From Leptospiraceae bacterium (GTDB lineage: Bacteria > Spirochaetota > Leptospiria > Leptospirales > Leptospiraceae): a DNA stretch of 64,000 nucleotides. The notes under the pieces were generated by a model. That model did no database searches. It worked only from the letters and a program-made list of their open reading frames with translations, and was not told the origin of the DNA. Location: contig JACKPA010000012.1 of assembly GCA_024233865.1 (NCBI GenBank), positions 128,001 to 192,000 of the forward strand, in the 5' to 3' direction. Positions 7,629 to 57,338 of this stretch are shown here, one piece after another (the stretch's first letter is position 1; each line of letters opens with the position of its first letter). The position numbers were made by a program, and so were the translations under genes.

Positions 7629-7878
7629 GTTTTTGTCTCAAAATCAATTTGCATTCTTGTGGCAAATTGTTATACAGTAAATTTAAATTATGTGTTTTGG
7701 AAAATGGGATATTTTGATAGATAAAAATTGACTTAATTGCTTTCTCGGTTGACTGTTGGCAGAGATAACATACATTTCTTGGGAATCGCTCCACCGTTTC
7801 GGAAAGTGCAATTGCACTATTCAAGTCTTCTTCGGCGTATTTAAGCCATGTTTTCCATTCCGGTATATTCTCGTTCAT
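7615..7878 (-). CDS. HEPN-domain protein (toxin-like partner of the nucleotidyltransferase)
   Basis: 87 aa with a ...STEKAIKS...KTHNLNLL... HEPN-like pattern. It overlaps the upstream nucleotidyltransferase gene by 38 nt. Confidence 0.55.
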   Translation of the reverse strand: MNENIPEWKTWLKYAEEDLNSAIALSETVERFPRNVCYLCQQSTEKAIKSIFIYQNIPFSKTHNLNLLYNNLPQECKLILRQKHENN

Positions 7879-8209
7879 ATATTAATTTACCCTCCTTTAA
7901 AGCATGATAATATATAGACCATTTCTTTTGTTTATATTTAGATTCTTCGTCTTGACTGATAACCAAAATATCAGTTGCTATAGGAAAGTTTTCTAATAAC
8001 TTCCGAATCTGAATAGCTAATTTCCTCCTATGCTCAACTTCTTTAAATTCTATTAGAATATCTAAATCACTATTTTCATTTTCCGTACCTTTGGCATAAG
8101 AGCCAAATATAAAGATTTTTTCCGGTTTGAATGTTGGAATGATTCTTTTTATTGTTTCATCCTTAAGATAACTGAATTCATATCTTGTTGTTTTGTTTTC
8201 TGCGATCAT
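7841..8209 (-). CDS. Minimal nucleotidyltransferase (MNT) domain protein
   Basis: IFIFGSYAKGTENENSDLDILIEF is the canonical GS...DxD nucleotidyltransferase motif. Confidence 0.7.
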   Translation of the reverse strand: MIAENKTTRYEFSYLKDETIKRIIPTFKPEKIFIFGSYAKGTENENSDLDILIEFKEVEHRRKLAIQIRKLLENFPIATDILVISQDEESKYKQKKWSIYYHALKEGKLIYEREYTGMENMA

Positions 8210-8249
8210 AGCATTCTCCTTTATTAATTATACCATACTTTTATCAAAA

Positions 8250-11200
8250 TCATTTTATAATCAACCAGGTTACAAGCTCAAAATCGTCTACATCTTTTAT
8301 TTGTTCCTTCTTAGATGGAAGGACAGAGTGCCTGCTTGTTGTTAGGGCTAACAGATTCTTTTTCTGAAAGACTCCTACCGTTTCTTCAATGGACTTCACA
8401 AGTAACTTATTGTAAAAATCCATATTTTTTCCGTTATCGGTTTCTTTATTAAATTGGTTACAAAGTTTTTCAATTGGAGATGTGATCCCAACACACAAAG
8501 CTCTATAGATGTCTAAAATCTGCTTGGCATGAGTAAACTTGTAACGAACATCTCCATTTTCTTGAACATAAACAAGATAAAACGGTTGTAAGGGATTCAC
8601 AGATTCAGAACTTGCAGTTCCTACTTTATGCCTTAAGCAAAATATAACTCCAGGAGATACAGTCTTATTTTGTTTATTTTCTATCTCAACTTCTTTTGGG
8701 ACAAGAGAATACAAACCAAAAGGAGTTTCCCTAAGCATTTTTTCATTGGATTGCAAATAGTTTAGTAAATCCACTCGAAAGTCATCCAAAGTAAACTCAC
8801 TAAAAGAAACGTTATCAGTCAAATCATCCAAATCCAGAATTTCTTTTTGTAGCCTCTTTAGCTGTTCATCTCTATAACTCAATTCATCACTTACCATATT
8901 TTCAATTTCTTCGACATTTAAAATATTTTCCTCATTTGTAGCAGTAATGTCTACCAATGCCATTCTAGCTTCCACTCTATGCTTTAACTTGATGTAATTG
9001 TCCAAATCTTCTGTGGGCCAGAAATTAACCAGGTGAACCGAATTATTTTTACTACCTAAACGATCAATCCTACCAAACCTTTGGATAATACGAACAGGAT
9101 TCCAATGAATATCATAATTTATCAGGTAATCACAGTCTTGGAGGTTTTGTCCTTCAGAAATACAATCTGTTGCAAATAGTACATCAATTTCTTCTATAGG
9201 CATTTTATCCAGTTTTTCACGATGTTTTGAAATGGGCGAAAAATTGATTAAAATTTCTTCATATCTAGAACTACCTAAAGTTGTTTTGTTTACACCACTC
9301 CCCAAAACCAAAGCCGTATGAACACCCAACTCTTTGTAAATATGATCTTTCAATTGCTCATAAATGTATATAGCCGTATCAGCATAAGCAGTAAATACTA
9401 AAACTTTTTTATTCGGCTTTCCATCATTATTTTTATTAGGATTTTTTATTTTTTCTGTTATCAAATCTTTCAATTTATGAAGTTTGGCATCTCTAATGGG
9501 AGTAATAGCTTCTGCCTGGTTATACAGAGAAACCAATTGCTCCCTGTCTTTTTCCAAATCTTGAAGCCATTCGTCTACTTTTAAGTCATCCAATTTATAC
9601 ACCAGTTTTTCTCCAATTTCAAATGCTTGTTTCAAATCTTCGTCTTCCATTTCTTCATTGGTTACTATTTCATCTGTTGCATAGCTTGTATTTTTATTAT
9701 CTCTAAATTTCTGATATTCTCTTATTTTATCTTCCAAGGTATCTATCTTTTTAATTGTTCTGTCCAGAGTGATTTTAAAAGAAAAAATAGAACTTTCTAT
9801 TCGTTTCATAAAGTTGGTTTTCATCATTCCTATCAAAAAATATTCCCTTTGACTTTGTGAAAAATTTTTCACCATTCTGGAAACCTTCGTCTCATAGAGC
9901 TGAATTTTCTCTTCTTTTAGATAAGCAAAAGGGTTAAACAAACTCAGTTTATACTTTGTAATTTCTTCATTTACTTTATCATAAGATACAAAGCGATTAT
10001 TCATATCAATCCTAGTTGTAACGGATATAGGTTTGGCTCTTTTTGGGAATTTACCAATTATTTCTAAACTTTCTTTATAATACCTTTCGATATGCTTTCT
10101 TGACCTTGCTATTGTTAATTGGTCTAGCATCTTAAAAAATGAGGATGGTAGTTTTTCCAAAAGTTCTAATGTTCTCCTTTCGGCATTTTTTTTGTGGTCT
10201 GCCCACATAGTAAAGACTTTTTGAGAAGTTATTAAAGTTTGGTTTATGCTTTGGATTCCAATTGTAAATAGATAAGCAGAATCATCTCCCGCAGTTATAA
10301 AGTAAATTTGATTTCTTAAATCTTGCAAGTGAACATTCACAGGAGTAGCAGACAAAAGTAATACCTTTGTTTTCCTTCCTTTTTGAATCACATCTTCCAT
10401 TAATTTTTCATAACGGCTTTTTTTGATTACATTTCCTTCTTCGTCTTTTTTTCCTTTGGTATTATTCCTAAAATTATGCGATTCGTCAATTACTACCAAA
10501 TCAAAGTTTTCCCAATTCAATGTCCTTAAATCAATATCTCCTTGCTTTCCGGAATCTCTGCCAAGATCGGTATGATTCAAAACCATATAACCAAATTTGT
10601 CTTCCAAAAAAGGATTCAATATAGAATTGTTAGCTGCCTGGTAAACTGTCCAATTGTCCCGTAGCTTTTTAGGACAAAGAACAAGAACACGATCATTTCT
10701 TAATTCGTAGTATTTTATAATTGCCAAGGCTTCAAAAGTTTTTCCCAAACCTACGCTATCGGCGATAATGCAACCGTTGTATTGTTCTATTTTATTAATG
10801 GCTGATTTTACACCATCCTTTTGGAATTCGTATAAGGATTTCCATATAAGAGAATCAAAGAAGTGGCTTTTTTCTTCTAATAACTCTAACTTACTTTTGT
10901 CTTGTAAGTATTTCTGAAAGATGTGATATAGAGTTTTGTAATAAATAAACTCAGGAGAATAATCCAAATACAGTTGCTTAAGATATTCAATTACTTCTTC
11001 TTTTACGTCCTCCACTTCCTCACTATTCCAAAGCTCATTAAACCAGCTAAGCAAATCCAATGTATCACGCTTGGAATCTATAATCAGATTAAGTTCAATA
11101 TTAGGATTAGAGCCAAATCCAATACCTCTATTTGTAAAATTGGAGCTACCCATTATAGCATGGGATAACCCACTTGGTTCATGAATATGATATAGTTTCC

Positions 11201-11582
11201 CATGCAGAAAATTACTTTTTTTAACGGATTTGATTTCTACTTTTTTAGCTATCCATTCCTCACAATCTCTTGCTATTTTACTTTGCTCTAGACGGTTGGA
11301 AAGAGATAAACCATGGTCTTCAATATCAAAAGATTTTTTATCAGTTTTGTCTGGGTCTAATGATTTGGTAAACCTGGGTTCTCCAAACAAAAATCTCAAT
11401 TCGGAAATGCTCTCAAGTCTATCTTTCAATTGATAATAGGCGTAAATTGTAAAAAAGGCGGAAACGAAAGATAATTTGGATTCTTCTACAATCGTTTTTT
11501 CTAAGAATTCCCCTACACTTCCATTTTTTCGATTATCCCTTATGTTAGAAAAACTGATATTTTGCTGGTTAAATTTTTGCAA
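8250..11582 (-). CDS. Phospholipase-D-family nuclease fused to an SNF2-family ATPase/helicase (1110 aa); putative defense protein
   Basis: The N-terminus HGKLYHIHEPSGLSHAIMGSSNFTNRG is an HxK...GSxN PLD motif. The SNF2 N-domain carries CIIADSVGLGKTFEALAII (Walker A) and DLVVIDESHNFRN (DEAH-like). Helicase_C carries LVFTAYADTA...FATDCISEGQNLQDCDYLINYDIHWNPVRIIQRFGRIDRLGS (motifs IV-VI). Confidence 0.8.
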   Translation of the reverse strand: MQKFNQQNISFSNIRDNRKNGSVGEFLEKTIVEESKLSFVSAFFTIYAYYQLKDRLESISELRFLFGEPRFTKSLDPDKTDKKSFDIEDHGLSLSNRLEQSKIARDCEEWIAKKVEIKSVKKSNFLHGKLYHIHEPSGLSHAIMGSSNFTNRGIGFGSNPNIELNLIIDSKRDTLDLLSWFNELWNSEEVEDVKEEVIEYLKQLYLDYSPEFIYYKTLYHIFQKYLQDKSKLELLEEKSHFFDSLIWKSLYEFQKDGVKSAINKIEQYNGCIIADSVGLGKTFEALAIIKYYELRNDRVLVLCPKKLRDNWTVYQAANNSILNPFLEDKFGYMVLNHTDLGRDSGKQGDIDLRTLNWENFDLVVIDESHNFRNNTKGKKDEEGNVIKKSRYEKLMEDVIQKGRKTKVLLLSATPVNVHLQDLRNQIYFITAGDDSAYLFTIGIQSINQTLITSQKVFTMWADHKKNAERRTLELLEKLPSSFFKMLDQLTIARSRKHIERYYKESLEIIGKFPKRAKPISVTTRIDMNNRFVSYDKVNEEITKYKLSLFNPFAYLKEEKIQLYETKVSRMVKNFSQSQREYFLIGMMKTNFMKRIESSIFSFKITLDRTIKKIDTLEDKIREYQKFRDNKNTSYATDEIVTNEEMEDEDLKQAFEIGEKLVYKLDDLKVDEWLQDLEKDREQLVSLYNQAEAITPIRDAKLHKLKDLITEKIKNPNKNNDGKPNKKVLVFTAYADTAIYIYEQLKDHIYKELGVHTALVLGSGVNKTTLGSSRYEEILINFSPISKHREKLDKMPIEEIDVLFATDCISEGQNLQDCDYLINYDIHWNPVRIIQRFGRIDRLGSKNNSVHLVNFWPTEDLDNYIKLKHRVEARMALVDITATNEENILNVEEIENMVSDELSYRDEQLKRLQKEILDLDDLTDNVSFSEFTLDDFRVDLLNYLQSNEKMLRETPFGLYSLVPKEVEIENKQNKTVSPGVIFCLRHKVGTASSESVNPLQPFYLVYVQENGDVRYKFTHAKQILDIYRALCVGITSPIEKLCNQFNKETDNGKNMDFYNKLLVKSIEETVGVFQKKNLLALTTSRHSVLPSKKEQIKDVDDFELVTWLIIK

Positions 11583-11669: not shown

Positions 11670-12329
11670 TCAAAATCTATACAATTCATCAGGAAATCCG
11701 GTAGAATCAAAGCATTTACTTTCCAGTAGGTTAAAAGAAACAACCGTAAAATGTGGTTTTAAGGCTTCCATATAGAAATGTAAAGGTCTTTGGTAGGCGT
11801 ACGGGTCGTTAAACCCAAGTTCTTTTTTCATGCGATCATAGTCCTTGTCGGTTGGAACTGAAAAATACAAATACTTTGTAATTCGAGAAAGTTTTTGAAA
11901 CATATTTTCTATATCTCTTCCTATGTATTGAAATACGGAATTACATATGGTGAAATCCAGTGGATTTTGTTCTATATTCAAAATAGTAAAGTCTTGGATT
12001 GAGGAGTGTATTATAGAAATATCCAAGCCACTAATCCACCTCGATTTGCTGAGTTTGTCTACCATTTCCCAGGAAGGCTCTATGGCATACACCTTATCCG
12101 GTTTTAGCAATTTCACAAAGTCTTCTAAAAGGTTTGCTTTTCCAAAACCAAAATCTGCCATAGAATACACCTCTATCTCACAAAGCGTAAATAGGGAAGC
12201 AATATAACGGGCGTGGTCTTTGGAATTATATGTTCCGTCAATGTCTATTTCATCTCGATAAACGGTTTTCCAGTATTTTTTATCAAAGGCAAGACCATTG
12301 GCAGCTGATGTAAGAACGGAATGTTTCAC
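11670..12329 (-). CDS. Class I SAM-dependent methyltransferase
   Basis: MADFGFGKANLL fits a glycine-rich SAM-binding motif I. The 4-nt overlap (ATGA) with the upstream membrane-protein gene suggests translational coupling. Confidence 0.55.
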   Translation of the reverse strand: MKHSVLTSAANGLAFDKKYWKTVYRDEIDIDGTYNSKDHARYIASLFTLCEIEVYSMADFGFGKANLLEDFVKLLKPDKVYAIEPSWEMVDKLSKSRWISGLDISIIHSSIQDFTILNIEQNPLDFTICNSVFQYIGRDIENMFQKLSRITKYLYFSVPTDKDYDRMKKELGFNDPYAYQRPLHFYMEALKPHFTVVSFNLLESKCFDSTGFPDELYRF

Positions 12330-18721: not shown

Positions 18722-19639
18722 ATGAATCAATTAACCTATCGTTTAACCTCTGCTTTCCCTTTTTTGCTAATTTTTGCGTCTCTGCTTTCTTTATTTTATC
18801 CTGGTTTGTTTACTTGGTTTCGTGGAACGTCTATTACAATTGGTTTAGGAATCATTATGCTTGGAATGGGAATTACTCTAAAACTAGAAGATTTTAAAAG
18901 AATCTATTTGTATCCATCCAATGTCCTTCTGGGAATTGGATTGCAATACACCGCAATGCCAATAAGCGGTTGGACAATTGCCCATATTTTTAATTTACCT
19001 CCGGAATTTGCTACCGGTATTATATTGGTTTCTTGTTGTCCCGGAGGAACTGCTTCCAATGTTATCACCTACATAGCCAAAGCTGATGTTGCGTTGTCCG
19101 TTACCATGACTTCTTTTTCCACAATATTTGCCGTTGTGCTTACTCCCATTCTTACCTCTTTTTTGGCTGATAGCACGATTGCGGTGAATGGGTGGGGTTT
19201 GTTCTATAGTACTCTGAATGTTGTAATTGTTCCGATAGTTTGTGGAGTTTTGCTAAATCAATTTTTTCCAAAAGTCACTACCTTTTTGATGCCTGCTTCA
19301 CCTGCTGTAGCGGTTTTTATGATAGTTCTGATTGTAGCGTCTATTATAGGAAGTTCCAGCGCTATCATATTGGAGCATGGATTGCAATTGATCGCTGCCG
19401 TTATGAGCCTCCATGTTTCCGGTTTTTTCTTGGGTTACGTGATTAGCAAAATGGTAATCAAAGACAAAATTGTATCTAGAACCATTTCTATCGAAGTAGG
19501 GATGCAAAATTCCGGTTTGGGAGTTGTCCTTGCCAAAGAGAATTTTACAAGTCCTATGGTTGCTGTTCCTTCCGCTATTTCCAGTTTGTTCCATTCTATA
19601 ATTGGTAGCATACTTTCCGGTATATGGCGAAGAAACTAA
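18722..19639 (+). CDS. Bile acid:sodium symporter (BASS) family transporter
   Basis: 305 aa, ~9 TM helices; segments around LVSCCPGGTASNVITY and SIEVGMQNSGLGVVLA match SBF-family conserved regions. Confidence 0.75.
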   Translation: MNQLTYRLTSAFPFLLIFASLLSLFYPGLFTWFRGTSITIGLGIIMLGMGITLKLEDFKRIYLYPSNVLLGIGLQYTAMPISGWTIAHIFNLPPEFATGIILVSCCPGGTASNVITYIAKADVALSVTMTSFSTIFAVVLTPILTSFLADSTIAVNGWGLFYSTLNVVIVPIVCGVLLNQFFPKVTTFLMPASPAVAVFMIVLIVASIIGSSSAIILEHGLQLIAAVMSLHVSGFFLGYVISKMVIKDKIVSRTISIEVGMQNSGLGVVLAKENFTSPMVAVPSAISSLFHSIIGSILSGIWRRN

Positions 19640-28472: not shown

Positions 28473-28754
28473 TTATTGCAAAACTGAAAACCCCTCTTTT
28501 TCCGTATAACATCCATGTTCTCGGTAAACTCCGTCTTCATAAAAATAGATTTTCTGGGCATACCTTTTTTCCATACGGAGGCATTTCCAGCATACATCCA
28601 TCCGAATTGCCCATTCACATTCCTGAATCTGCAAAACCGGAAAAATTCTAAGCAAAGGCTTGGAAATCTGGACTTGATTTTTTCTCTCTTGCGAAAACAA
28701 AAGAGTAGAAAATAACTGTATTATTAATAGGATAAGTATACATTTTTGTTTCAT
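28473..28754 (-). CDS. Small secreted Cys-containing hypothetical protein
   Basis: 93 aa with a signal peptide; weak support. Confidence 0.25.
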   Translation of the reverse strand: MKQKCILILLIIQLFSTLLFSQERKNQVQISKPLLRIFPVLQIQECEWAIRMDVCWKCLRMEKRYAQKIYFYEDGVYREHGCYTEKEGFSVLQ

Positions 28755-28859
28755 TTGTTCATTTGGAGAATTTTTCTTACCAAAGGAAATTAGTCAAACG
28801 TAATGTAACTTTTTTATACTTTTTACGAATATCATTCCATGAGAACAGGAGAGAGTTAT

Positions 28860-29195
28860 ATGGAAAAATCATACTATAATCCAGAAGATTTAAAAAAATT
28901 TCCAAAAATTGCTGATTTTCAACCCCAACTGGCAAAAAAATTTTTTGATTATTATGGAGATGTTTTTCAAGATGGTGCTTTATCTGCAAAAGAAAAATCT
29001 TTAATTGCACTTGCGGTTGCTCATGCAATTCAATGTCCTTATTGTATTGATGCCTATACAACCGATTCTTTGGAAAAAGGAGTTAGCGAGGAAGAAATGA
29101 TGGAAGCAGTCCATGTAACGGCAGCCATTCGAGGCGGTGCAAGTCTTGTACATAGTGTCCAGATGATGAACAAAGTTAAAGAATTATCCATGTAA
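28860..29195 (+). CDS. AhpD-like (carboxymuconolactone decarboxylase family) peroxidase-like protein, of the kind paired with ArsS
   Basis: LIALAVAHAIQCPYCIDAYT is the AhpD-core Cx2C...H region. RBS aggagag upstream. 10 nt upstream of the radical-SAM gene. Confidence 0.55.
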   Translation: MEKSYYNPEDLKKFPKIADFQPQLAKKFFDYYGDVFQDGALSAKEKSLIALAVAHAIQCPYCIDAYTTDSLEKGVSEEEMMEAVHVTAAIRGGASLVHSVQMMNKVKELSM

Positions 29196-29205
29196 AGGGA
29201 GCAGT

Positions 29206-30252
29206 ATGAAAACACTAAAAACCAGAGGGCATATATTCTCAGATTCCAATCAACAATTGGAAGACTATAGGTTCATTTTTAAAAAAAATGACTTGCCCGC
29301 TTTCCAAGAGAAAATGAAAGAGATTGGACTTTATCCTTTCAAACCTACCCAAATTGAAATTCTTCAAATCAATTTAGGGAAAATGTGTAACCAAACTTGT
29401 AAACATTGTCATGTTGATGCCGGACCTGAAAGAAAAGAAATTATGACTCACAAAACAATGGAAGTTTGCTTAGAAATTTTAAAAAATCATGACATTGGAA
29501 TTGTTGACCTTACCGGTGGTGCTCCGGAGTTAAATCCAGATTTTAGATGGTTTGTGGAAGAAATCAAAAAGCTAAACCGCCATATAATTGTTAGGTGCAA
29601 TTTAACAATTCTGCTTGCCGGAGAAAAATTCCAAAGTTTACCGGAGTTTTATGCTCTACACAAAGTTGAAATTGTTTCCTCCCTGCCATTTTACACCACA
29701 TTAAAAACCGATAGCCAAAGGGGTGAAGGGGTTTTTGATAAGTCCATAATCGCTCTCAAAAAGCTCAACCAAATTGGATATGGAATAGAAGGTTCAGGCT
29801 TGACATTAAACTTGGTTTATAATCCTTCTGGAGCTTTTTTACCAGGTAACCAACAGTCCTTAGAAGCAGATTTTAAAAGAAATCTACAAAACAAATATGG
29901 GATCGTTTTTAATAACCTGTTCACTATAACCAATATGCCAATTAGTAGGTTTTTGGACTATTTGCATACAAGTGGGAATTATGAAGACTATATGGAAAAG
30001 TTAGTTACTTCTTTTAATCCTAGTGCTGCCCAGAACGTAATGTGTAGGAACATGATTTCCGTTAGTTGGGATGGATTTTTATACGACTGCGATTTCAACC
30101 AGATGCTAGATTTAAAAATTGCTTCCGAGTCCAACCATATTATTGATTTTAATATGGAAATCCTTAAAAACCGAGAAATCGTTTTAAACCAACATTGTTA
30201 CGGATGTACGGCTGGTGGAGGTTCCAGCTGCGGAGGTGCCATTACAAAATAG
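29206..30252 (+). CDS. arsS: Radical SAM / Cys-rich-domain protein (arsenosugar-biosynthesis ArsS-type)
   Basis: CNQTCKHCHV (Cx3Cx2C-type cluster with inserted residues) and C-terminal CYGCTAGGGSSCGGA Cys-rich tail; paired with an AhpD-like gene. Confidence 0.65.
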   Translation: MKTLKTRGHIFSDSNQQLEDYRFIFKKNDLPAFQEKMKEIGLYPFKPTQIEILQINLGKMCNQTCKHCHVDAGPERKEIMTHKTMEVCLEILKNHDIGIVDLTGGAPELNPDFRWFVEEIKKLNRHIIVRCNLTILLAGEKFQSLPEFYALHKVEIVSSLPFYTTLKTDSQRGEGVFDKSIIALKKLNQIGYGIEGSGLTLNLVYNPSGAFLPGNQQSLEADFKRNLQNKYGIVFNNLFTITNMPISRFLDYLHTSGNYEDYMEKLVTSFNPSAAQNVMCRNMISVSWDGFLYDCDFNQMLDLKIASESNHIIDFNMEILKNREIVLNQHCYGCTAGGGSSCGGAITK

Positions 30253-30262
30253 TGCGGGGAAA

Positions 30263-31384
30263 TTAGCTTTTTTTCAAAGTAAAGTAGAATGTACTACCCA
30301 TTTCGTTTTCGCTTTCTACCCAAATATGACCACCGTTTTTCTCTACAAACTCTTTACATAAAATAAGCCCAAGTCCCGTTCCTCTCTCATCATCTGTTCC
30401 TCTTGTTGAAAAGCCCTCTTCAATTTTGAAAAGCTTGCCTAAATTTTCTTGTGTTATTCCTATGCCCGTGTCTCTAACATAAAATAGGATTTCATCTTTT
30501 TCATAGGATTTACAACCTATGGCTATGGAACCGCCCTTTGGCGTAAATTTTATAGCATTAGACAGAAGGTTTCTAAATACGGTTTGAATCATTTCCCTAT
30601 CTGCTATTGCTTGGTGATTATCCGGGCATAGTATTTCATTTTGAATTGTAATCTGTTTTGCATCTGCTAAAGTGAATTTATGAAAAGTTGTAACATCATT
30701 GATGAGAGCTTTTATATCAAACGATGTTGGATTGAATGGAATTTTGTTTGTTTGTGATCTAGACCACGTTAAAAGGTTTTGTAACAAATTCAAGGTATGC
30801 TTGGAGCTATCGTAGATCATTCCAATAAATCGTTTATTTTCTTCCAGACTAAAAGTTTCCCCACTGTTTAGGAGCAATTCGGAAACACTAATCAGGGCAT
30901 TAAAAGGATTTTTGAGATCATGGGCAATAATGGAAAAAAATTTATCCTTTGTTGCATTGAGTGACTCGAGTTGTTCCATTTGGTTTTGAATAATTTCTTG
31001 AGAGCGTTTGAACTTTAGATGCGTATTCACTCGTTGAAGCAGTTCTATAGGATTGAAAGGCTTCACAACATAGTCAACACCTCCATATTCAAATCCTTTG
31101 ATTACGTCTTCGGTTTGGGAACGAGCTGTCAAAAAAATAATTGGTACATTTAGTGTTTTCGGGTTTTCTTTTAATTTTTTACATACTTCGTACCCGTCCA
31201 TTCCAGGCATGGAAATGTCCAATAAAATCAGGTCTATTTTTGCTTCGGATACGATTTTTAGAGCTTGTTTGCCATTGAGAGCAGCATAAGACTCAATGTT
31301 ATTTTCATTCAGAATATTTCCAACTATTTGTAGGTTTTCGGGAATATCATCAACAATAAGTACTGTAAAACTATCTTGCTCCAT
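30263..31384 (-). CDS. Hybrid sensor: N-terminal response-regulator receiver + HisKA + HATPase histidine kinase
   Basis: LIVDDIPEN...DLILLDISMPGMDGYE (REC), SIIAHDLKNP (H-box), GTGLGLILCKEFVEKNGG (G2 box). Confidence 0.8.
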   Translation of the reverse strand: MEQDSFTVLIVDDIPENLQIVGNILNENNIESYAALNGKQALKIVSEAKIDLILLDISMPGMDGYEVCKKLKENPKTLNVPIIFLTARSQTEDVIKGFEYGGVDYVVKPFNPIELLQRVNTHLKFKRSQEIIQNQMEQLESLNATKDKFFSIIAHDLKNPFNALISVSELLLNSGETFSLEENKRFIGMIYDSSKHTLNLLQNLLTWSRSQTNKIPFNPTSFDIKALINDVTTFHKFTLADAKQITIQNEILCPDNHQAIADREMIQTVFRNLLSNAIKFTPKGGSIAIGCKSYEKDEILFYVRDTGIGITQENLGKLFKIEEGFSTRGTDDERGTGLGLILCKEFVEKNGGHIWVESENEMGSTFYFTLKKS

Positions 31385-31396
31385 TTGCTTACCTTT

Positions 31397-33733
31397 TTAT
31401 TCGGATAATACTTCAATAATAACAGGAAATTCTTTTAATAGATTCACAATTTTTCGAATATCATAATTTTTGGAAGCAGTCTTTAATTGCTGTGAATAAT
31501 CAGTCAGTGGCGCGATTTTATATTTTCGTGCAATATCTCCTACCTCACTGGCAAATCCTCTAATTTCCGGCATGGAGATAAACGTTTCAACTTGTTTATG
31601 AGCAGGGAGTAAGGTTTTCAGCCTTTCTACGGATTCCCAAAGAATTTCTTTTGAAATGTTTGTTTTGAATTGATTCAAATTATTCAAAAGACTATTATGT
31701 TCCGCTTTATTTTGTGATTTTAAGCTATAAGGCAGATGCTTCATCAAAATATTTATCAAGTCTTTTTTGGAAACCGGTTTTTGCATAATTGTATCAAAGC
31801 ATTGGGGCATTATTTCTATTTTGGAAGACACCGTCTGAGCTATAATTGGTATGGATTTATATTTTGGATTTTCTTTTAATTTTTTTGCTGCTTCGTCTCC
31901 ATTCATTTGGGGCATATAGATGTCCATAATGATTAAATCAAGTTGATGCTGTTCAAACATTTCCAAAGCTTCGATTCCATTTGATGCCTCTAAGATTTCC
32001 AAATTGTATTTATGCAGATAAGCTTTGAATATGTTACGATTGCTTTGAATATCATCAACTATGAGAATTGTAGCATTTTCAAATTCGATTTCATTATAAG
32101 AAAGTGATATATCTTCTTTTGTCTCTGTCTGTTGTACGGAAATGTTTTTAAAGTGGACCGTAAATTCAGAACCGTTCCCCAAAGTGCTTTTCACCTCAAT
32201 ACTACCATTCAAGGCTTCAGCCAATCTTTTGCTAATGGATAAACCAAGACCTGTTCCACCATATTTTTTGATATTTTGACTTTCTCTCTGGCGAAACGGC
32301 TCGAATATAAGTGCAATTTCTTTGTCTTCTATGCCGATTCCACTATCCTTTACACAAACATCAAAGTTAATTCTACCTGATTCCGGTTCCAATTGCCAAT
32401 GTTCTATGGATACTTTGACATAACCTCTATCCGTAAATTTAATGGCATTGCCAATTAGGTTAAACAAAATTTGGCGTAACCTGGCTTCATCAATCAAAAC
32501 ACATTCGGGAAAATCGTGAGGTATTTCAATAGGGAATTCAATACTTTTTTGATTGGCATTCATAAAGAAAACTTGTTTGATTTCTGTGAGTAGAGACTTG
32601 ATATTTGTTGCAGACTCTCTTATTTGTAAACGCCCTGCTTCTATTTTGGAAAGATCAAGAATATCGTTTATCAAATTTAGTAAATTTTTTCCGCTATTGA
32701 GTATTCCTTCGAAATAGTCAGTATATTCAGGTTTATGAGATAGTTTATCTTTTAGAATTTCAGAAAAACCAAGAATAACGTTCATGGGAGTTCGGATTTC
32801 GTGGGATATATTGGCAATAAATTCCGACTTAACCAAGTTGGCTCTTTCTGCTTCTTCTTTGGCTGTAACGAGCTCTTGTTCTATTTGCTTGCGACCACTA
32901 ATATTACGATTGAATATGGCAATCCCGTCATCCATTGGTACGACTTGATGATAATACCAACCAACTGTTTGATTGGTAATAGCTGCCTGGAATTCTCCTT
33001 CTAATGGCATGCCGGTTTCACAAACTATTTTGTACTGTTCAAAAAAGCCTTGATTGTTTTCCATTGGGAATATTTCTAAGATGCTTTTTCCAATAGCTTC
33101 TTTTTGTGAGGACATTCCAATTTCTAAAACAGCATTGCCATTTAACTCCTCGATGATAAAGTCAATGATTTCATTGTTATCATTTTGCAGGTACTTTAAA
33201 AGGTAGATTGCATCCAAGTTGGACTCAATGGCTGTTTTAAATCGTTTTTCACTCTCTTTTAGAGCTTGTTGTACTTTTTTTTGCTCGGTTATATTTATTT
33301 TAACCGCCAGAAAATGAGCGATTTCTCCGTTATTACTTATGATTGGTGATATGGTCGCACTTTCCCAAAATGTTGTACCATCCTCGCGTTTGTTTAGAAA
33401 TTCACCCTGCCACGTTTTCCCTGATAAAATTGTTTCCCAAAGTTCTTTGTAGGTTTCTTTGGGAGTATGATTTGTTTTTAAGATTCGGTGATTTTTTCCT
33501 ACTACTTCTTCCAATTGATATCCGGTTAATTTTGTGAATTGAGGATTTACATATTCTATATTTCCGTATTTATCAGTTATCGATATACTGACTGGACTTT
33601 GTACAACCAAAGTAGAAAATTTTTGTAATTCTCGCTCCAGAAATGCTTGAGAACGCTTTAATTCTTTATTTTCAGCTTCGAGCTCTTCAATTTTATTGTG
33701 CAGCAATTCTTCTATATTTTCTGAACTTGACAT
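31397..33733 (-). CDS. PAS/PAC hybrid sensor histidine kinase with C-terminal receiver domain
   Basis: Coiled-coil, two PAS regions, [10 protein letters not shown] (H-box), [12 protein letters not shown] (G2), [11 protein letters not shown]...[16 protein letters not shown] (REC). Confidence 0.8.
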
Positions 33734-33800
33734 AAACGCTATAAACCAGTGTCATGGTGAGCTTGTCGAACCATGAATTTTTTAGTTAAACTTATAGTTA

Positions 33801-34961
33801 CTATTTTTTTGATTTCTTTAAAGTAAAGTAGAATTTGCTACCTTTACCGATAGTACTTTTTACACGAATTTTTCCTTTGTTTTTTGCCACAAATTCTTTA
33901 CATAGTATCAGTCCGAGTCCAGTACCTTTTTCATTTTCTGTTCCCAGTGTGGAATGGGTTTTTTCTATCTTGAACAGATTGCTTTGCCTTTCCGGTGAAA
34001 TGCCAACACCCGTATCACTGACGCTAAGGAGGATTTTGTCATTTTCTTTCTGTTTGCAAAAGATGGTAACCACTCCACCTTTGGGCGTAAATTTAATCGC
34101 ATTGGAAATTAAATTTCTAAGTACTGTTTGGATCATATCTTTGTCCGCAAACACTTTTAAGTCTTCTGATTTGATCCTTATTTTAAGCTCAATTTGTTTG
34201 GAAATTGCAGAGGTGGTTTGATAAAGCATGGTAACATCTTTGATTAGCCACTGTATATCAAAATCAATAGGAGTGTATGCAATCTTTTTAGATTGCAGCT
34301 TGGACCAAAGTAAAAGGTTTTCCAATAATACGTATGTTTGTTTACTGCTATTGTATAGAATATTTGCCCAATATTTTATTTTTTCCGGACTAAGTTCAGA
34401 ATGGTTGTCTATTAAAAAACTCGAAATATTTACCAAAGAAGTGAACGGGCTTTTGAGATCATGAGAGATAATGGAAAAAAATTTATCCTTGGTTGCATTT
34501 AATTTTTTTAAACGCTTTGCCAAAGCTCTATATTTTTCTTTGCTTTCCTTTAATAATTTTTCTGTTTGATAACGATCTTCTATATCATGAATTATGGAAC
34601 ATAAAACTTCTTTTTTACCTACAACCATTTTGGCGCTATATACTTCTACATGGCGAATATTTCCATTGGAAAGTCGATGCCTAAAAAAGAAATGGTTTCG
34701 TTTTTCATTTTTTGCATTTTGCATTTCTGCGAGTATTTCATTAGGTGTTAAAATATTGATTTGATTTATATTCAATTTTGTTATTTGATCTATGGAATAA
34801 CCATAGTATTTGCAAGCTGCTTGGTTGGCATCAACAATGAATCCGCTTTCCGGATCAATCAAAAGCATAACTGAAAAATTATCATAAAAAAGTGTTTTGT
34901 ACCTTTGTTCGCTTTCATCAAGTTGTTGAGCAATTTTTAGTTCGTTGTTTTGGATTTTCAT
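33801..34961 (-). CDS. PAS sensor histidine kinase
   Basis: PAS segment, SIISHDLKSP (H-box), GTGLGLILCKEFVAKNKG (G2). Confidence 0.8.
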   Translation of the reverse strand: MKIQNNELKIAQQLDESEQRYKTLFYDNFSVMLLIDPESGFIVDANQAACKYYGYSIDQITKLNINQINILTPNEILAEMQNAKNEKRNHFFFRHRLSNGNIRHVEVYSAKMVVGKKEVLCSIIHDIEDRYQTEKLLKESKEKYRALAKRLKKLNATKDKFFSIISHDLKSPFTSLVNISSFLIDNHSELSPEKIKYWANILYNSSKQTYVLLENLLLWSKLQSKKIAYTPIDFDIQWLIKDVTMLYQTTSAISKQIELKIRIKSEDLKVFADKDMIQTVLRNLISNAIKFTPKGGVVTIFCKQKENDKILLSVSDTGVGISPERQSNLFKIEKTHSTLGTENEKGTGLGLILCKEFVAKNKGKIRVKSTIGKGSKFYFTLKKSKK

Positions 34962-34999: not shown

Positions 35000-36046
35000 T
35001 TAAACAACAACTTCACTAAATAGTTGAATCGTTTCTTGTTTACCATTTTCTTTGGCTAAGATAAGAGCATTTTTTTCATCTTTATTTTTTAGGTAAGTTG
35101 TGGCACCTCTTGTTAAAAACAAGTTGGCAGCTTTTGTTTTGCCGTGTTTGGCAGCTAGCATCAATACAGTATTTCCATCTTTATCCCTTGAATTTATGTC
35201 AAACCCGAAGTCTAACAATTTTTCCAATTTGGAAATGTTGTCTTCTAGGATTGCCTGAAAAAATTGAGTAAATAGACCGGCAGATAAAACGCTAAGGGTG
35301 TGTCGAAACTGGTATTTATCTGCTTCATCAAAAACACTATTTCCTTGGTTATTTCTAAGGGTGATGTCAGCACCTAAGGATAGCAAAATTTCAACCGATT
35401 CGGTGCTGTCATTGGAAACAGCAAATAGTAAAGCCGTATATCCATCCTGGTCTTTTTCGTTTATTGAACTGCCTTTTTTTACAAGAAGCCGAAGAGATTC
35501 AAAACAATTATTTTCAGCCGCCAGCATAAGAGGAGTTTTGCCTTCTACGTCTTTTGTGTCTAGCTTGGCACCATGTTCCAACAGTAATTCAATGGTTTCA
35601 ATATCTTTTGATTCTATGGCAGCATGAATAGGGTAGTTTCCATCACCACTTCTCGTATTTACATCAACTTTTTGCTTTAAAATGTGCTCTATAATACAGA
35701 TATCATTGGACAAAATAGCACGATGCAAAACCGTAAAGTTATCTTTATCCCTTTGGGTTAAGTCTACATTTTTTTGAGTTAATAAATAAACAATTTCTTT
35801 GTCTTTTTTTAGAATAGCTCCAAAAATAGGTGTATTTCCACTATTGTTGGGAAAATTAGGGTCAGAACCGTTTTCTATAAGCTTTCCCACTATTTCAATA
35901 CTTGACTCTTTGCAAGCCCAATAGAGGGGAGTTATACCATACCTGTCTCGGTAATTTAAATCTACATCTTCTCTTGAAAGAATAGCTATAACTTTATCAA
36001 TGTCATTTGCACGAATGGATTGTATAAGTACCTCTTCTTCTTTCAT
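35000..36046 (-). CDS. Ankyrin-repeat protein (~9 repeats)
   Basis: Repeated G.TPLH.A......V..LL..GAD motifs throughout. Confidence 0.8.
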   Translation of the reverse strand: MKEEEVLIQSIRANDIDKVIAILSREDVDLNYRDRYGITPLYWACKESSIEIVGKLIENGSDPNFPNNSGNTPIFGAILKKDKEIVYLLTQKNVDLTQRDKDNFTVLHRAILSNDICIIEHILKQKVDVNTRSGDGNYPIHAAIESKDIETIELLLEHGAKLDTKDVEGKTPLMLAAENNCFESLRLLVKKGSSINEKDQDGYTALLFAVSNDSTESVEILLSLGADITLRNNQGNSVFDEADKYQFRHTLSVLSAGLFTQFFQAILEDNISKLEKLLDFGFDINSRDKDGNTVLMLAAKHGKTKAANLFLTRGATTYLKNKDEKNALILAKENGKQETIQLFSEVVV

Positions 36047-36923: not shown

Positions 36924-37564
36924 TGGCTTTTAGTAATTATAAAACCGTAGATGCTGTGCTTAAAGAGTTTCAAATTACCTATACCGAATCAAATTTTGTT
37001 ATAGAAACAGACTTTTCTATTTCGGACTATTTTCGAGAAGATTTGGAATTTATCAGAGAAGAAGGAGCACCCGAATGTTCGGAATATGCTATTTGTGAAA
37101 ACTTGATTTACCCACTATTAAAAGAAGTTTGGAAAAAATACTATAGTAAGTTTATGTTATGGAGCCACAAGTCACTCAATTATGATGAAAAATTATCAGG
37201 TTTTCCGGAGTATATTCTATCTAAACGTTCTCTGCTAGGAAAAATAGTCTTTGATCAGCCTTATTTTATGTTGGTAGAAGCAAAGCAAGATAATTTTGAA
37301 GTAGGGTGGGCACAATGTTTAGTTGAAATGTTTGCTGCCCAGAAATTAAATGAAAATCCGGATCAGGAGATATTTGGGATTACTTCCAATGGCTCTGTTT
37401 GGCAATTTGGAAAGTTAAAAGGTAGTCTTTTTACTAAAAATAAGAAATATTACTTACTAGATGATCTGAACAAGCTTTTGGGAGCGATTAATTATATATT
37501 TTTTCAGTGTGAAGTATTACTAGGTGGGGAAGAGAGGAGTGAACCTGAAAATGCTATGTGCTAG
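36924..37564 (+). CDS. HsdR-N-like PD-(D/E)xK protein, paralog 2
   Basis: GFPEYILSK...FMLVEAKQDNFEVGWAQCLVEMFAAQ...GITSNGSVWQF. Confidence 0.5.
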
Positions 37565-37580
37565 AATATTTAGGAGAATA

Positions 37581-38084
37581 ATGAAATTTATATTGATACC
37601 TGTATTATTGTTTTTATCATGTATAGGCATAGGATTTAAGGAGACCACGCCAGAACAACAACTTTTTCAAGCTACATCAGATGGTAATATAAAAAAAGCG
37701 AAACAACTTATATCAGAAGGAGCAAATATAAATGAGAGTCGAGCATTAATAGTTGCTTCATACAGAGGAAGAACAGAACTTGTCAACTTATTAATCAGTT
37801 ATGGAGCAGATGTAAATGTTAAATCTGATGTTTATGAGACTACGCCACTGTTTGCTGCGTCAGAACATGGTGGTAGAACAGATATTATGAAAATATTAAT
37901 CCAAGCTGGAGCTGACCCAAATTTCAAAGATCAATATGGACGAACACCTCTGTATTTTGCTTATAGGAGGAAAAATGCTGAAGAAATTAGAATATTAAAA
38001 CAAGCAGGTGCTAAAGAGCTTAATCTGAAGCAAACAAGAGATCAATGTAAATATTGTATTGGTTGCATGTGTCCTGTTGAATAA
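37581..38084 (+). CDS. Ankyrin-repeat lipoprotein
   Basis: LLFLSCIGI lipobox-like signal; three or four ankyrin repeats; RBS aggag upstream. Confidence 0.65.
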   Translation: MKFILIPVLLFLSCIGIGFKETTPEQQLFQATSDGNIKKAKQLISEGANINESRALIVASYRGRTELVNLLISYGADVNVKSDVYETTPLFAASEHGGRTDIMKILIQAGADPNFKDQYGRTPLYFAYRRKNAEEIRILKQAGAKELNLKQTRDQCKYCIGCMCPVE

Positions 38085-38191
38085 TTATCTCCGAACATAG
38101 TCGAATTGAATTTTAATGTTAAAAATCAATTGTGTTATGATGTATTGAAAAGGAGTAACAAGAAAATGCTTAATCTAGCAATCAAAAAATC

Positions 38192-38488
38192 ATGTATAAG
38201 TATACAACTGTTAGGGGTAATGAAAGTCAAATTAATATTATGAGAAATGATAGAATATACCAATCCATATTAAACCATTTAAGCCTAGTTCCGATTGATT
38301 ATTTACAAGAAGTAGATATTTATTTACGAAATCTTATTAAAATTCTTAAGAGGAAAGAACATAATAGGAAGATGATTTTGGAATTGGCAGGTTCTTGGAA
38401 TGATATGCAAGAAAAGGATTTTAATGAATTTTTATTTATTACTAAAAAAATAGGTAATGAGATGTTTAATCGAGATATAGAACTATGA
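38192..38488 (+). CDS. Putative antitoxin partner of the downstream PIN toxin
   Basis: Small ORF whose stop overlaps the PIN gene start (ATGA); no diagnostic motif. Confidence 0.35.
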   Translation: MYKYTTVRGNESQINIMRNDRIYQSILNHLSLVPIDYLQEVDIYLRNLIKILKRKEHNRKMILELAGSWNDMQEKDFNEFLFITKKIGNEMFNRDIEL

Positions 38489-38886
38489 AACAAGCTCTTA
38501 TAGATACAGACACACTTTCTTACTTTTTCCATAAGAACTCGGCAGTTGTCGAAAAACTAGATAAGTACTTAAAAGAATATGGTTTTATCAATATCAGTGT
38601 TGTTACATACTATGAGGTATTGAACGGTTTATATTTCAAAGATGCTAAAAATCAGTTAGTTAAATTTGAGCAGTTTGTTGAATTAAACGAGATTCTACCT
38701 TTGACGGACGAAATAGCTAAAAAATCAGCAGAAATTTATGCAGATTTGCGTAAGAAAGGGCAGACGATTGGACATAATGATACATTAATTGCAGGAACAG
38801 CCATTGTGAATGATATGACTTTAGTAACAAATAATACTAATCATTTTGGTAGAATAGAAGGCTTAGAAATTGATAATTGGGCATAA
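38485..38886 (+). CDS. vapC: PIN-domain toxin (VapC-like)
   Basis: LIDTDTLSYFF start and the conserved acidic-residue spacing of PIN domains; 133 aa. Confidence 0.7.
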   Translation: MKQALIDTDTLSYFFHKNSAVVEKLDKYLKEYGFINISVVTYYEVLNGLYFKDAKNQLVKFEQFVELNEILPLTDEIAKKSAEIYADLRKKGQTIGHNDTLIAGTAIVNDMTLVTNNTNHFGRIEGLEIDNWA

Positions 38887-38944
38887 CATTCTATTATCAA
38901 TTAGCATTGGTGTATGATTAGAATCAAAACTTTTTGAGAATAGT

Positions 38945-47085: not shown

Positions 47086-48015
47086 ATGAAAAAGCTAGGA
47101 CTATTATTTTCAGTTTTAGCGCTGACATTAACGATGTCAGCCACAGGAATTTCGGCAGGAGCATTAAGCGGTCAATGCTACGTTTTGGTCCATGGAATAT
47201 TGGGCTTTGATGATACAAACGGACTTGCAAATGGTCTTGTTAAATATTGGGGTGGATTAGACGGATACCTCAGAGGTCAAGGAGCTAAAGTTGCTACACC
47301 AGGAAGTTCGGCTGCCAATGACTTGGCTACAAGAGCAGGTCAGATTAAGAGCTTTTTGGAAGGAACTTCAAGCAATCCAGGCTGGAGAATTACCAATGGT
47401 TGTGCTAAAGTGCATCTAATTGGTCACTCTCAAGGTGGTCTAGTTTCCCGATATTTGGTAAAAAACCTAAGTTATTCAAGCAAAGTTGCTTCCGTAACTT
47501 CGGTAAATACTCCTCATAAAGGAAGCCCTGTTGCTGATGTTGTTTTGGCTGTGATTCCTAGTTGGTTGCAACCGTTTGTGAATGTTGTTCTTAGCACATT
47601 TGCAACAATAATGTATCGTGATGGTCGTCCGCAAGACGTAGTTGCAATGGGAAAATCGTTAACGGTTTCGTATTGTAACACTTTTAATTCCAGTACACCA
47701 AACGTGTCTGGAATTAGCTATTACTCTTATGGATCAACAATGGCTTGGGCTGACCTAATCCAACATCCACTTATGGGTATTACCTACCCTGCAACATGGG
47801 CAGGTGGATTGGCTTATGGACAAGGTTCTGCAAATGATGGTATTGTTCCTGAATCTTCCCAAAAGTGGGGAACATGGAAAGGTGGACCAAGCACATATTG
47901 GTATGCCACAGGGATAGATCATTTAGAAGCAACCAATTTTGAGTGGTGGGGACAAAACTACTACGATGTTAATGGCTATTACTTAAAAATAGCTAAAAAC
48001 GCTGCAGGTCTGTAG
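47086..48015 (+). CDS. Secreted triacylglycerol lipase (alpha/beta hydrolase, bacterial lipase family I-like), copy A
   Basis: Signal peptide, YVLVHGILGF (oxyanion), IGHSQGG (GxSxG), 309 aa. Confidence 0.7.
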   Translation: MKKLGLLFSVLALTLTMSATGISAGALSGQCYVLVHGILGFDDTNGLANGLVKYWGGLDGYLRGQGAKVATPGSSAANDLATRAGQIKSFLEGTSSNPGWRITNGCAKVHLIGHSQGGLVSRYLVKNLSYSSKVASVTSVNTPHKGSPVADVVLAVIPSWLQPFVNVVLSTFATIMYRDGRPQDVVAMGKSLTVSYCNTFNSSTPNVSGISYYSYGSTMAWADLIQHPLMGITYPATWAGGLAYGQGSANDGIVPESSQKWGTWKGGPSTYWYATGIDHLEATNFEWWGQNYYDVNGYYLKIAKNAAGL

Positions 48016-48331: not shown

Positions 48332-49261
48332 ATGAAAAAGCTAGGACTATTATTTTCAGTTTTAGCGCTGACATTAACGATGTCAGCCACAGGAATTTCG
48401 GCAGGAGCATTAAGCGGTCAATGCTACGTTTTGGTCCATGGAATATTGGGCTTTGATGATACACACGGACTCGCAGGTGGTCTTGTTAAATATTGGGGCG
48501 GATTAGACGGATACCTCAGAGGTCAAGGAGCTAAAGTTGCTACACCAGGAAGTTCGGCTGCCAATGACTTGGCTACTAGAGCAGGTCAGATTAAGAGCTT
48601 TTTGGAAGGAACTTCAAGCAATCCAGGCTGGAGAATTACCAATGGTTGTGCTAAAGTGCATCTAATTGGTCACTCTCAAGGTGGTCTTGTTTCCCGATAT
48701 TTGGTAAAAAACCTAAGTTATTCAAGCAAAGTTGCTTCCGTAACTTCGGTGAATACGCCTCATGTAGGAAGTCCTGTTGCTGATGTTGTTTTGGGTGTTA
48801 TTCCTAGTTGGTTGCAACCATTTGTGAATGTTGTTCTTAGCACATTTGCAACAATAATGTATCGTGATGGTCGTCCGCAAGACGTAGTTGCAATGGGAAA
48901 ATCGTTAACGGTTTCCTATTGTAAAGCTTTTAATAAGAGTGCACCAAATGTATCCGGACTTAAATACTACTCTTACGGATCAAATATGGCTTGGGCTGAC
49001 CTAATCCAACATCCACTTATGGGTCTTACCTACCCTGCAACATGGGCAGGTGGATTGTTTTACGGACAAGGTTCGGCAAATGATGGTATCGTTCCATTGT
49101 CTTCCCAAAAATGGGGAACATGGAAAGGTGGACCAAGCACATATTGGTATGCCACAGGGATAGATCATTTAGAAGCAACCAATTTTGAGTGGTGGGGACA
49201 AAACTACTACGATGTTAATGGCTATTACTTAAAAATAGCTAAAAACGCTGCAGGTCTGTAG
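48332..49261 (+). CDS. Secreted triacylglycerol lipase, copy B (tandem duplicate)
   Basis: 309 aa, >90% identical to copy A, including ~190 bp of upstream sequence. Confidence 0.7.
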   Translation: MKKLGLLFSVLALTLTMSATGISAGALSGQCYVLVHGILGFDDTHGLAGGLVKYWGGLDGYLRGQGAKVATPGSSAANDLATRAGQIKSFLEGTSSNPGWRITNGCAKVHLIGHSQGGLVSRYLVKNLSYSSKVASVTSVNTPHVGSPVADVVLGVIPSWLQPFVNVVLSTFATIMYRDGRPQDVVAMGKSLTVSYCKAFNKSAPNVSGLKYYSYGSNMAWADLIQHPLMGLTYPATWAGGLFYGQGSANDGIVPLSSQKWGTWKGGPSTYWYATGIDHLEATNFEWWGQNYYDVNGYYLKIAKNAAGL

Positions 49262-54454: not shown

Positions 54455-54560
54455 GAATTGACTATTTTTTTGATAGAATTGACTATTTTTTTGATAGAAT
54501 TGACTATTTTTTTGATAGAATTGACTATTTTTTTGATAGAATTGACTATTTTCTAGTTGA
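54455..54560. repeat. Direct tandem repeat with a 21-bp unit (gaattgactatttttttgata), about 4.7 copies
   Basis: Perfect copies at 54455, 54476, 54497 and 54518, plus a partial copy. It sits in the intergenic region upstream of a histidine-kinase gene. Confidence 0.8.
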
Positions 54561-54604
54561 TAATTATTCTCATTAAAAAAATAATAGCATTCAGGGTGAA
54601 TTTT

Positions 54605-55780: not shown

Positions 55781-55794
55781 AATAGGAAAAAAAT

Positions 55795-57066: not shown

Positions 57067-57338
57067 ATAACGTGAGTTCGACGTAAGGAATAATGTTATA
57101 AAAATAATAAGGGTGAACACAGGGGTTCACCCCTACGCCCAAAAATACCATAGGCTTTGTAGGGGCAATCCCCCGGTGGTTGCCCTTTAGGTGAAAATAA
57201 AAATGTTATATCGAACTGACGTTAAATAACTAATATAACGTGAGTTTTTGTAAATTACCGTAGCTAAGCAGTAAAGCAAAAATAGTTGTGAAAATGAATT
57301 TCAGACAGGATTTCAGGATTTACATGATTTGTAGTACT

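Follow-up and report, generated by a model that had tools for sequence, protein, structure and literature searches.

The 64,000-nucleotide stretch of a Leptospiraceae contig analysed here (hereafter the window) carries two adjacent genes which, we consider it likely, constitute a two-gene operon coding for a genuine enzyme of the ArsS family and for the small CxxC protein, of the AhpD/CMD fold, that usually accompanies it, with an adenosylation step as the predicted activity. The function would most likely be the 5'-deoxyadenosylation of dimethylarsenite to DDMAA, with the partner serving as a CxxC redox helper. This finding repeats what automatic annotation had already assigned, for a family that is large, known and common in hosts of this type. 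The exact ArsS protein is already present in NCBI as MCP5496811.1 ('arsenosugar biosynthesis radical SAM protein ArsS [Leptospiraceae bacterium]') and the exact partner protein as MCP5496810.1 and MCB1190608.1 ('arsenosugar biosynthesis-associated peroxidase-like protein'), from two Leptospiraceae MAGs. Moreover, a second MAG (GCA_020440835.1) contains the same locus with 99.6% DNA identity and identical gene order. The host is a Leptospiraceae MAG, of the heterotrophic type that an earlier, sequence-only reading of this DNA had supposed, and the spirochaete-type families encoded in the window (a BB0259-like flagellar lytic transglycosylase, a Leptospira-type VapC and LvrA-like kinases) agree with the taxonomy. 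The novelty that this reading implied for a non-phototrophic host is weak however, since the exact proteins already bear these names and since ArsS is very common in non-phototrophic Bacteroidota.

The ArsS-family protein and its AhpD-like partner

The radical SAM protein scores 458.5 bits (E = 9.5e-138; cutoff 300) on the NCBIfam model TIGR04167 ('arsenosugar biosynthesis radical SAM (seleno)protein ArsS'), an equivalog model, and covers positions 3-303 of its 303 positions, and Pfam detects the Radical_SAM and DUF3641 domains (2e-58). The best radical SAM model other than ArsS, WgkB, reaches 42.5 bits where 650 would be required, and all others reach at most 36 bits; the runners-up as a group (WgkB, MoaA, YydG, the TIGR04053 SPASM family and the mycofactocin maturase) lie at 29-43 bits with cutoffs in the hundreds. 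The sequence-only reading had kept another radical SAM subfamily in view as the competing assignment, yet an identity as a SPASM/twitch peptide maturase or sulfatase maturase was rejected because no such model exceeds 43 bits.

The two cysteine-rich elements that had been noticed by eye are both present, the cluster CNQTCKHCHV at residues 61-70 and the Cys/Gly-rich C-terminal tail at residues 331-348 (CYGCTAGGGSSCGGAITK). In an alignment of the window protein with 80 relatives (81 sequences), C61, C65, C68, C280, C295, C331, C334 and C342 are conserved in 100% and C88 in 98% of the sequences, and each of the 112 residues conserved in at least 97% of them is found in the window protein. All nine family-conserved cysteines of ArsS and both cysteines of the partner are thus retained at this locus. 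DUF3641 is combined with the Cys(Sec)-rich tail (CxGC...GSSC/U) that marks the family. GSSC, which holds C342, takes the place of the family GxxU motif, in which the selenoprotein members have Sec, and C342 is therefore likely to be a functional thiol. No solved structure was found for the ArsS family. An AlphaFold2 model of the protein (pLDDT 85.9, pTM 0.88) has its closest PDB folds in SkfB, BlsE, EpeE, DesII, SuiB, anSME and MoaA, a likeness at fold level only (TM ~0.5), and residues 341-348, which include C342, are modelled with pLDDT below 50, consistent with a flexible tail.

The partner matches NCBIfam model TIGR04169 ('arsenosugar biosynthesis-associated peroxidase-like protein') with 186.2 bits against a cutoff of 120 (E = 1.3e-55) over positions 1-109 of 109, and the Pfam family CMD with 73 bits (1.6e-20). 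Both proteins hence lie above the curated cutoffs of the two family models by which the sequence-only reading had proposed to check its assignment, and to this extent its view of the pair as the two-gene signature of arsenosugar biosynthesis stands. The pair that has been described experimentally is however arsM-arsS, in Synechocystis; TIGR04169 is a model of the type 'hypoth_equivalog', and the pairing of ArsS with the peroxidase-like protein is an association from comparative genomics. In the PDB the relatives of the partner include 3bey and 5dik, both small proteins of the CMD/AhpD type. Its CPYC motif aligns to the CxxC of 3bey, and the histidine located four residues past the second cysteine of 3bey (CxxCxxxH) corresponds to an invariant tyrosine in the partner family. 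Against TIGR00777, the model of canonical AhpD, the partner scores 17.4 bits with a cutoff of 191.95. This low score, together with the tyrosine in place of histidine, marks it as an AhpD-fold CxxC protein that is not demonstrably a peroxidase, and a role as a genuine AhpD peroxidase is improbable.

Both genes lie at the stated coordinates on the forward strand, with the partner gene immediately upstream of the co-oriented TIGR04167 gene, as had been read from the sequence, and with 10 bp between the stop codon of the first and the start codon of the second, which looks like a two-gene operon (Table 1). An alternative upstream ATG of the partner gene at 28839 would yield a protein of 118 aa, but the start that gives the 111-aa form is the one chosen by NCBI and has an AGGAG-type ribosome-binding site 5' of it; as GGGAG precedes the ArsS start, a purine-rich ribosome-binding site is present for each of the two genes. 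Since promoter-like sites are not in excess around the pair (6 found, 7.5 expected from shuffled sequence), the sigma-70-like site in Table 1 is a candidate only. The promoter and terminator scan detected no terminator around the pair, the upstream intergenic region contains only weak inverted repeats from which no regulator site could be proposed, and no RNA genes were found in the whole window by Rfam at gathering thresholds and tRNA scans. Between the gene of a UbiB-family kinase and the pair lies a small divergent ORF (28473-28754, reverse strand; 93-105 aa) with a signal-peptide-like N-terminus and no Pfam match; in the sister MAG, too, this ORF is annotated as a gene.

Table 1. Features of the gene pair, in window coordinates.
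Feature	Position	Strand	Remarks
Candidate sigma-70-like promoter, TAGTCA-18-TATACT	28791-28820	+	Weak; 9/12 positions match
AhpD/CMD-fold partner gene	28860-29195	+	111 aa; TIGR04169 and Pfam CMD
CPYC (CxxC) redox motif of the partner	29034-29045	+	Both Cys (C59 and C62, 111-aa numbering) 100% conserved in 73 partner sequences
ArsS gene; predicted radical SAM 5'-deoxyadenosyl transferase to trivalent dimethylarsenic	29206-30252	+	348 aa; TIGR04167, Radical_SAM and DUF3641
CX3CX2C motif (C61/C65/C68) for the radical SAM [4Fe-4S] cluster	29386-29409	+	100% conserved in 81 sequences
DUF3641 C-terminal domain with invariant C280 and C295	29839-30240	+	PF12345, 196.6 bits, residues 212-345
C-terminal Cys/Gly-rich tail CYGCTAGGGSSC with C331/C334/C342	30196-30231	+	All three Cys 100% conserved

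Surroundings of the pair in the window and in related genomes

The window offers the pair no arsenic-related company. A tblastn search of the 64 kb with arsenosugar-type ArsM returned nothing below E = 1.8, and searches with representatives of ArsM, TIGR04282, TIGR04283 and purine nucleoside phosphorylase (PNP) gave no meaningful match, so that a complete arsenosugar cluster is not encoded here. Likewise, NCBIfam, Pfam and PADLOC scans of the window ORFs of at least 110 aa revealed neither arsM nor an ars resistance gene, in agreement with the absence of arsM stated from the sequence. Taken together, no arsM, ars resistance, arsenosugar glycosyltransferase or PNP gene was found within 29 kb 5' or 34 kb 3' of the pair, and a genomic partnership of arsS with arsM like that of the Synechocystis operon does not exist within the 64 kb. 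Two candidates were considered and rejected: a 219-aa methyltransferase (11670-12329) is no hidden ArsM, as it has no NCBIfam ArsM match and a BLASTP E-value of 0.67 to ArsM, and a BASS-family transporter (18722-19639), examined as a possible ACR3, hits only the models for bile acid:sodium symporters and PanS, with none for ACR3 among them. The genes 5' of the pair code for an ABC transporter, a transglutaminase-like protein and the UbiB-family kinase, those 3' of it for three convergent PAS histidine kinases.

Elsewhere in the window several regions deserve mention in their own right. On the reverse strand, 3977-6315 holds four short ORFs (150, 115, 274 and 110 aa), three of which were scanned and match separate segments of type IIG restriction-methyltransferase models of ~1100-1250 aa, one of them being PglX-like as well; this looks like a fragmented, pseudogenised restriction-modification gene. 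Beside it, also on the reverse strand, 7841-11582 encodes a 1110-aa HKD and Snf2 protein that hits C3a139, a candidate defence family of PADLOC (405 bits), and has DrmD-like matches; a small PDC-S09 candidate protein adjoins it, and the region may represent an anti-phage island next to the decayed gene. A segment of ~1.4 kb (37524-38944) bears an ORF of ankyrin type and one for a VapC toxin like that of Leptospira. Contig JAGRNI010000022.1 of the sister MAG, with 99.6% identity in both flanks, lacks this segment, which is a strain-variable toxin-antitoxin insertion. Histidine kinases of the PAS and hybrid types are unusually dense in the window: five are encoded, in the regions 30263-34961 and 54557-59879, along with an 846-aa protein that resembles a CheB-CheR fusion and ends in a coiled coil, and two ankyrin-repeat proteins are encoded at 35000-36046 and 37524-38084. 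Finally, two 309-aa alpha/beta-hydrolase paralogues in tandem (47086-48015 and 48332-49261) precede a protein of 348 aa that faintly matches a lipase chaperone, possibly a lipase plus foldase set.

Relatives of the pair were sought in one genome per GTDB species. At least 574 species genomes contain ArsS relatives, of which the best 80 were examined; these best 80 are 57-65% identical to the window ArsS by tblastn and come almost entirely from heterotrophic Bacteroidota, with the addition of Melioribacteraceae, Rhodohalobacter and one Verrucomicrobiota MAG, so that a non-phototrophic host is normal for the ArsS family. In 72 of these 80 loci the partner gene lies directly 5' of the ArsS gene on the same strand. 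Two of the other eight end at a contig edge, which leaves 72 of 78 judgeable loci and six that truly lack the partner; tblastn found no hidden, Sec-interrupted copy of it in the partnerless loci. A general absence of the AhpD-like gene from syntenic loci, which had been named as a reason to abandon the assignment, is thus not what is found among the best 80 of at least 574 relatives.

Clustering of the neighbouring ORFs and NCBIfam scans identified recurrent companions of the pair, namely the 'arsenosugar biosynthesis glycosyltransferases' TIGR04282 and TIGR04283, the arsenosugar-type ArsM family NF038099 (570 bits), PNP, a dedicated rhodanese (NF045521) and a DUF547-like protein. Among the 46 loci whose flanks extend at least 7 kb to either side (fully flanked loci), TIGR04282 occurs in 32, NF038099 in 18, PNP in 16, TIGR04283 in 15 and the rhodanese in 13. 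At least one of ArsM, TIGR04282, TIGR04283 and PNP is present in 36 of the 46; the remaining 10 have none and are pair-only, a layout that recurs across several phyla. Further pair-only species include Arcicella rosea DSM 21163 and Muriicola sp. E247. The occurrence of ArsM, TIGR04282, PNP and TIGR04283 at related loci ties the pair to arsenic chemistry.

For the immediate kin of the window pair the picture is plainer. The closest database relatives of the window ArsS (66-67% identity) are pair-only, with no glycosyltransferase, PNP or NF038099-type ArsM beside them; one of these relatives (L083) does encode an unassigned UbiE-type methyltransferase ~4.7 kb 3' of the pair. In a neighbour-joining tree, which carries no bootstrap support, the window ArsS groups with pair-only loci of Melioribacteraceae, whose surroundings include sulfide:quinone reductase, DsrC and DsrE2 genes, and of Rhodohalobacter, whose surroundings include leuD/leuB. 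As these nearest relatives are pair-only in contexts unrelated to arsenic, local context provides no independent link to arsenic for this sub-group. The window ArsS is 61% identical to its relatives in the median and these are 62% identical among themselves, and the GC content of the pair (0.35-0.36) resembles that of the host (0.34), which together suggest that any horizontal acquisition was not recent. We therefore rejected recent transfer of the pair: the composition bears no sign of it, and the distance of the window ArsS to Bacteroidota sequences equals the distance among those sequences.

Two peculiarities of the related loci may be added. In Melioribacteraceae, locus L035 (4153-6920) encodes a type III sulfide:quinone reductase of selenoprotein subtype (677 bits), DsrC/TusE and a DsrE2-like protein 5' of a pair-only AhpD-ArsS, within ~6 kb and with two other genes in between; a MarR-type regulator lies 3'. 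In the Bacteroidota loci L043 (8612-9823) and L072 (8734-9939) the AhpD-like domain forms the C-terminus of an ORF of ~400 aa, the N-terminal ~285 aa of which appear metallophosphoesterase-like as judged by eye, and L074 and L063 have a separate gene for such a protein near ArsS. The metallophosphoesterase-like protein is possibly an extra cluster component or the product of a gene fusion.

Proposed chemistry and competing readings

In Synechocystis ArsS works together with ArsM, and arsM and arsS are co-transcribed, as later literature cites from Xue et al. (2019). The literature further describes that ArsS adds a 5'-deoxyadenosyl radical to dimethylarsenic to give DDMAA, from which adenine is removed later, and that on DMAs(III) this reaction is redox-neutral, the arsenic-centred radical re-reducing the cluster while As(III) becomes As(V). 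In the literature the conversion of DMAs(III) to DDMAA is known for the Synechocystis enzyme only. Homology to this characterised ArsS at the equivalog level allows its chemistry to be assigned to the window enzyme. By this homology, the [4Fe-4S] cluster bound by CX3CX2C would cleave SAM reductively, the resulting 5'-deoxyadenosyl radical would add to the arsenic of trivalent dimethylarsenite, and the arsenic-centred radical would give an electron back to the cluster. The flexible Cys-rich tail (C331, C334 and C342) is the probable site at which the thiophilic As(III) substrate is bound and presented. The partner is probably a dithiol/disulfide oxidoreductase, which may keep the tail thiols reduced or convert pentavalent dimethylarsenate to the trivalent substrate. 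Indirect support for such a role comes from two sides. The selenoproteins of family NF041537 are fusions of ArsM and AhpD and link AhpD-type CxxC/CxxU domains to arsenic methylation, and the dithiol DTT is reported to be able to reduce As(V) substrates of ArsL, a related C-As enzyme. Since ArsM, glycosyltransferases and nucleoside phosphorylase are missing from the window, the locus encodes the adenosylation step only and would by itself lead as far as DDMAA, stopping short of any arsenosugar or arsenolipid. The methylated arsenic would have to be supplied by an arsM elsewhere in the genome or by the environment.

But could the pair act without any arsM at all? An organism devoid of this gene might use it for stand-alone scavenging or detoxification, turning highly toxic trivalent methylarsenicals of microbial neighbours into the far less reactive pentavalent DDMAA, which housekeeping nucleosidases for 5'-substituted adenosines might then process. 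The ArsS reaction, redox-neutral and leading from As(III) to As(V) as the literature describes it, would suit this role; the pair-only layout of the window is shared by 10 of the 46 fully flanked relatives, and the occurrence of the pair in unrelated neighbourhoods across lineages is the behaviour of a self-contained unit. We nevertheless regard this reading as unlikely. An arsM outside the 64 kb window is equally possible, most relatives have ArsM and downstream sugar-processing genes beside the pair, and Synechocystis arsS mutants are reported not to be sensitive to arsenite. More far-reaching and in our view distinctly doubtful is the proposal that the AhpD-like protein and ArsS form a self-contained, horizontally mobile module of arsM-less bacteria (the Leptospiraceae lineage, Melioribacteraceae and Rhodohalobacter) which neutralises the trivalent methylarsenicals of competitors by adenosylation, with the CxxC partner as a dedicated As(V)/disulfide reductase. 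If true, it would constitute a new mechanism of organoarsenical resistance instead of arsenosugar biosynthesis.

A third proposal departs from arsenic altogether: in pair-only lineages the ArsS-family enzyme might adenosylate another soft nucleophile, such as a selenium, antimony or sulfur species, and the arsenosugar name would then reflect an over-extended equivalog model. Neither the window pair nor its nearest relatives have an arsenic gene nearby, the Melioribacteraceae loci adjoin sulfur-relay genes (type III SQR, DsrC/TusE and DsrE2), the rhodanese NF045521 accompanies 13 of the 46 fully flanked loci, and some family members use Sec. However, the window ArsS exceeds the equivalog cutoff of 300 with 458 bits, shares every invariant residue with the ArsM-adjacent relatives and is no more divergent from these than they are from one another (median 61% and 62%, respectively), which makes this proposal quite improbable. 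Finally, that the pair is the non-functional remnant of a formerly larger arsenosugar cluster, as the absence of the other cluster genes from the 64 kb might suggest, is hardly credible, given that both ORFs are intact with all invariant residues kept, that the locus is 99.6% identical and syntenic in the second MAG, that its GC content is close to that of the host and that the pair-only layout recurs in several phyla.

With this locus the Leptospiraceae, a spirochaete lineage, join the many heterotrophs that carry ArsS, and our analysis otherwise mainly confirms the annotation. In the literature searched, we found no paper that connects arsenosugars with Leptospira and no report of arsenosugar production by heterotrophs with these genes. 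As about one fifth of the fully flanked loci are pair-only, the organisms concerned may stop at DDMAA or use methylarsenic made elsewhere. The source of the methylarsenic and the role of the partner are matters of the whole family and bear on who makes organoarsenicals in soils and waters.

Relation to known systems

The partner shares the CMD/AhpD fold family and the CxxC with canonical AhpD (TIGR00777) and with small CMD-family CxxC proteins (5dik, 3bey), yet it differs from them in its score on the canonical model (17 bits, cutoff 192), in the tyrosine that replaces the histidine of 3bey and in having no AhpC nearby. ArsL, the non-canonical radical SAM enzyme of arsinothricin biosynthesis, makes a C-As bond with trivalent arsenic as its substrate, as is predicted for the window ArsS. 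However, ArsL transfers a 3-amino-3-carboxypropyl group instead of 5'-deoxyadenosyl and belongs to a different family, and the window ArsS does not match an ArsL model.

With the arsenosugar clusters of Bacteroidota (TIGR04169, ArsS, TIGR04282, NF038099, PNP, TIGR04283 and NF045521) the window pair agrees in core order and strand and in an ArsS identity of 57-66%, while it lacks all accessory genes, at least one of which is present in 36 of the 46 fully flanked relatives. The ArsS of Synechocystis sp. PCC 6803 comes from a cyanobacterium and not from a Leptospiraceae spirochaete, and its gene is reported to be co-transcribed with arsM, whereas the window has no arsM in its 64 kb and an AhpD-like gene upstream of arsS. 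Even so, the two proteins have in common the TIGR04167 equivalog family, the CX3CX2C motif, DUF3641, the CxxC...GSSC tail and presumably the chemistry by which a 5'-deoxyadenosyl radical and DMAs(III) give DDMAA.
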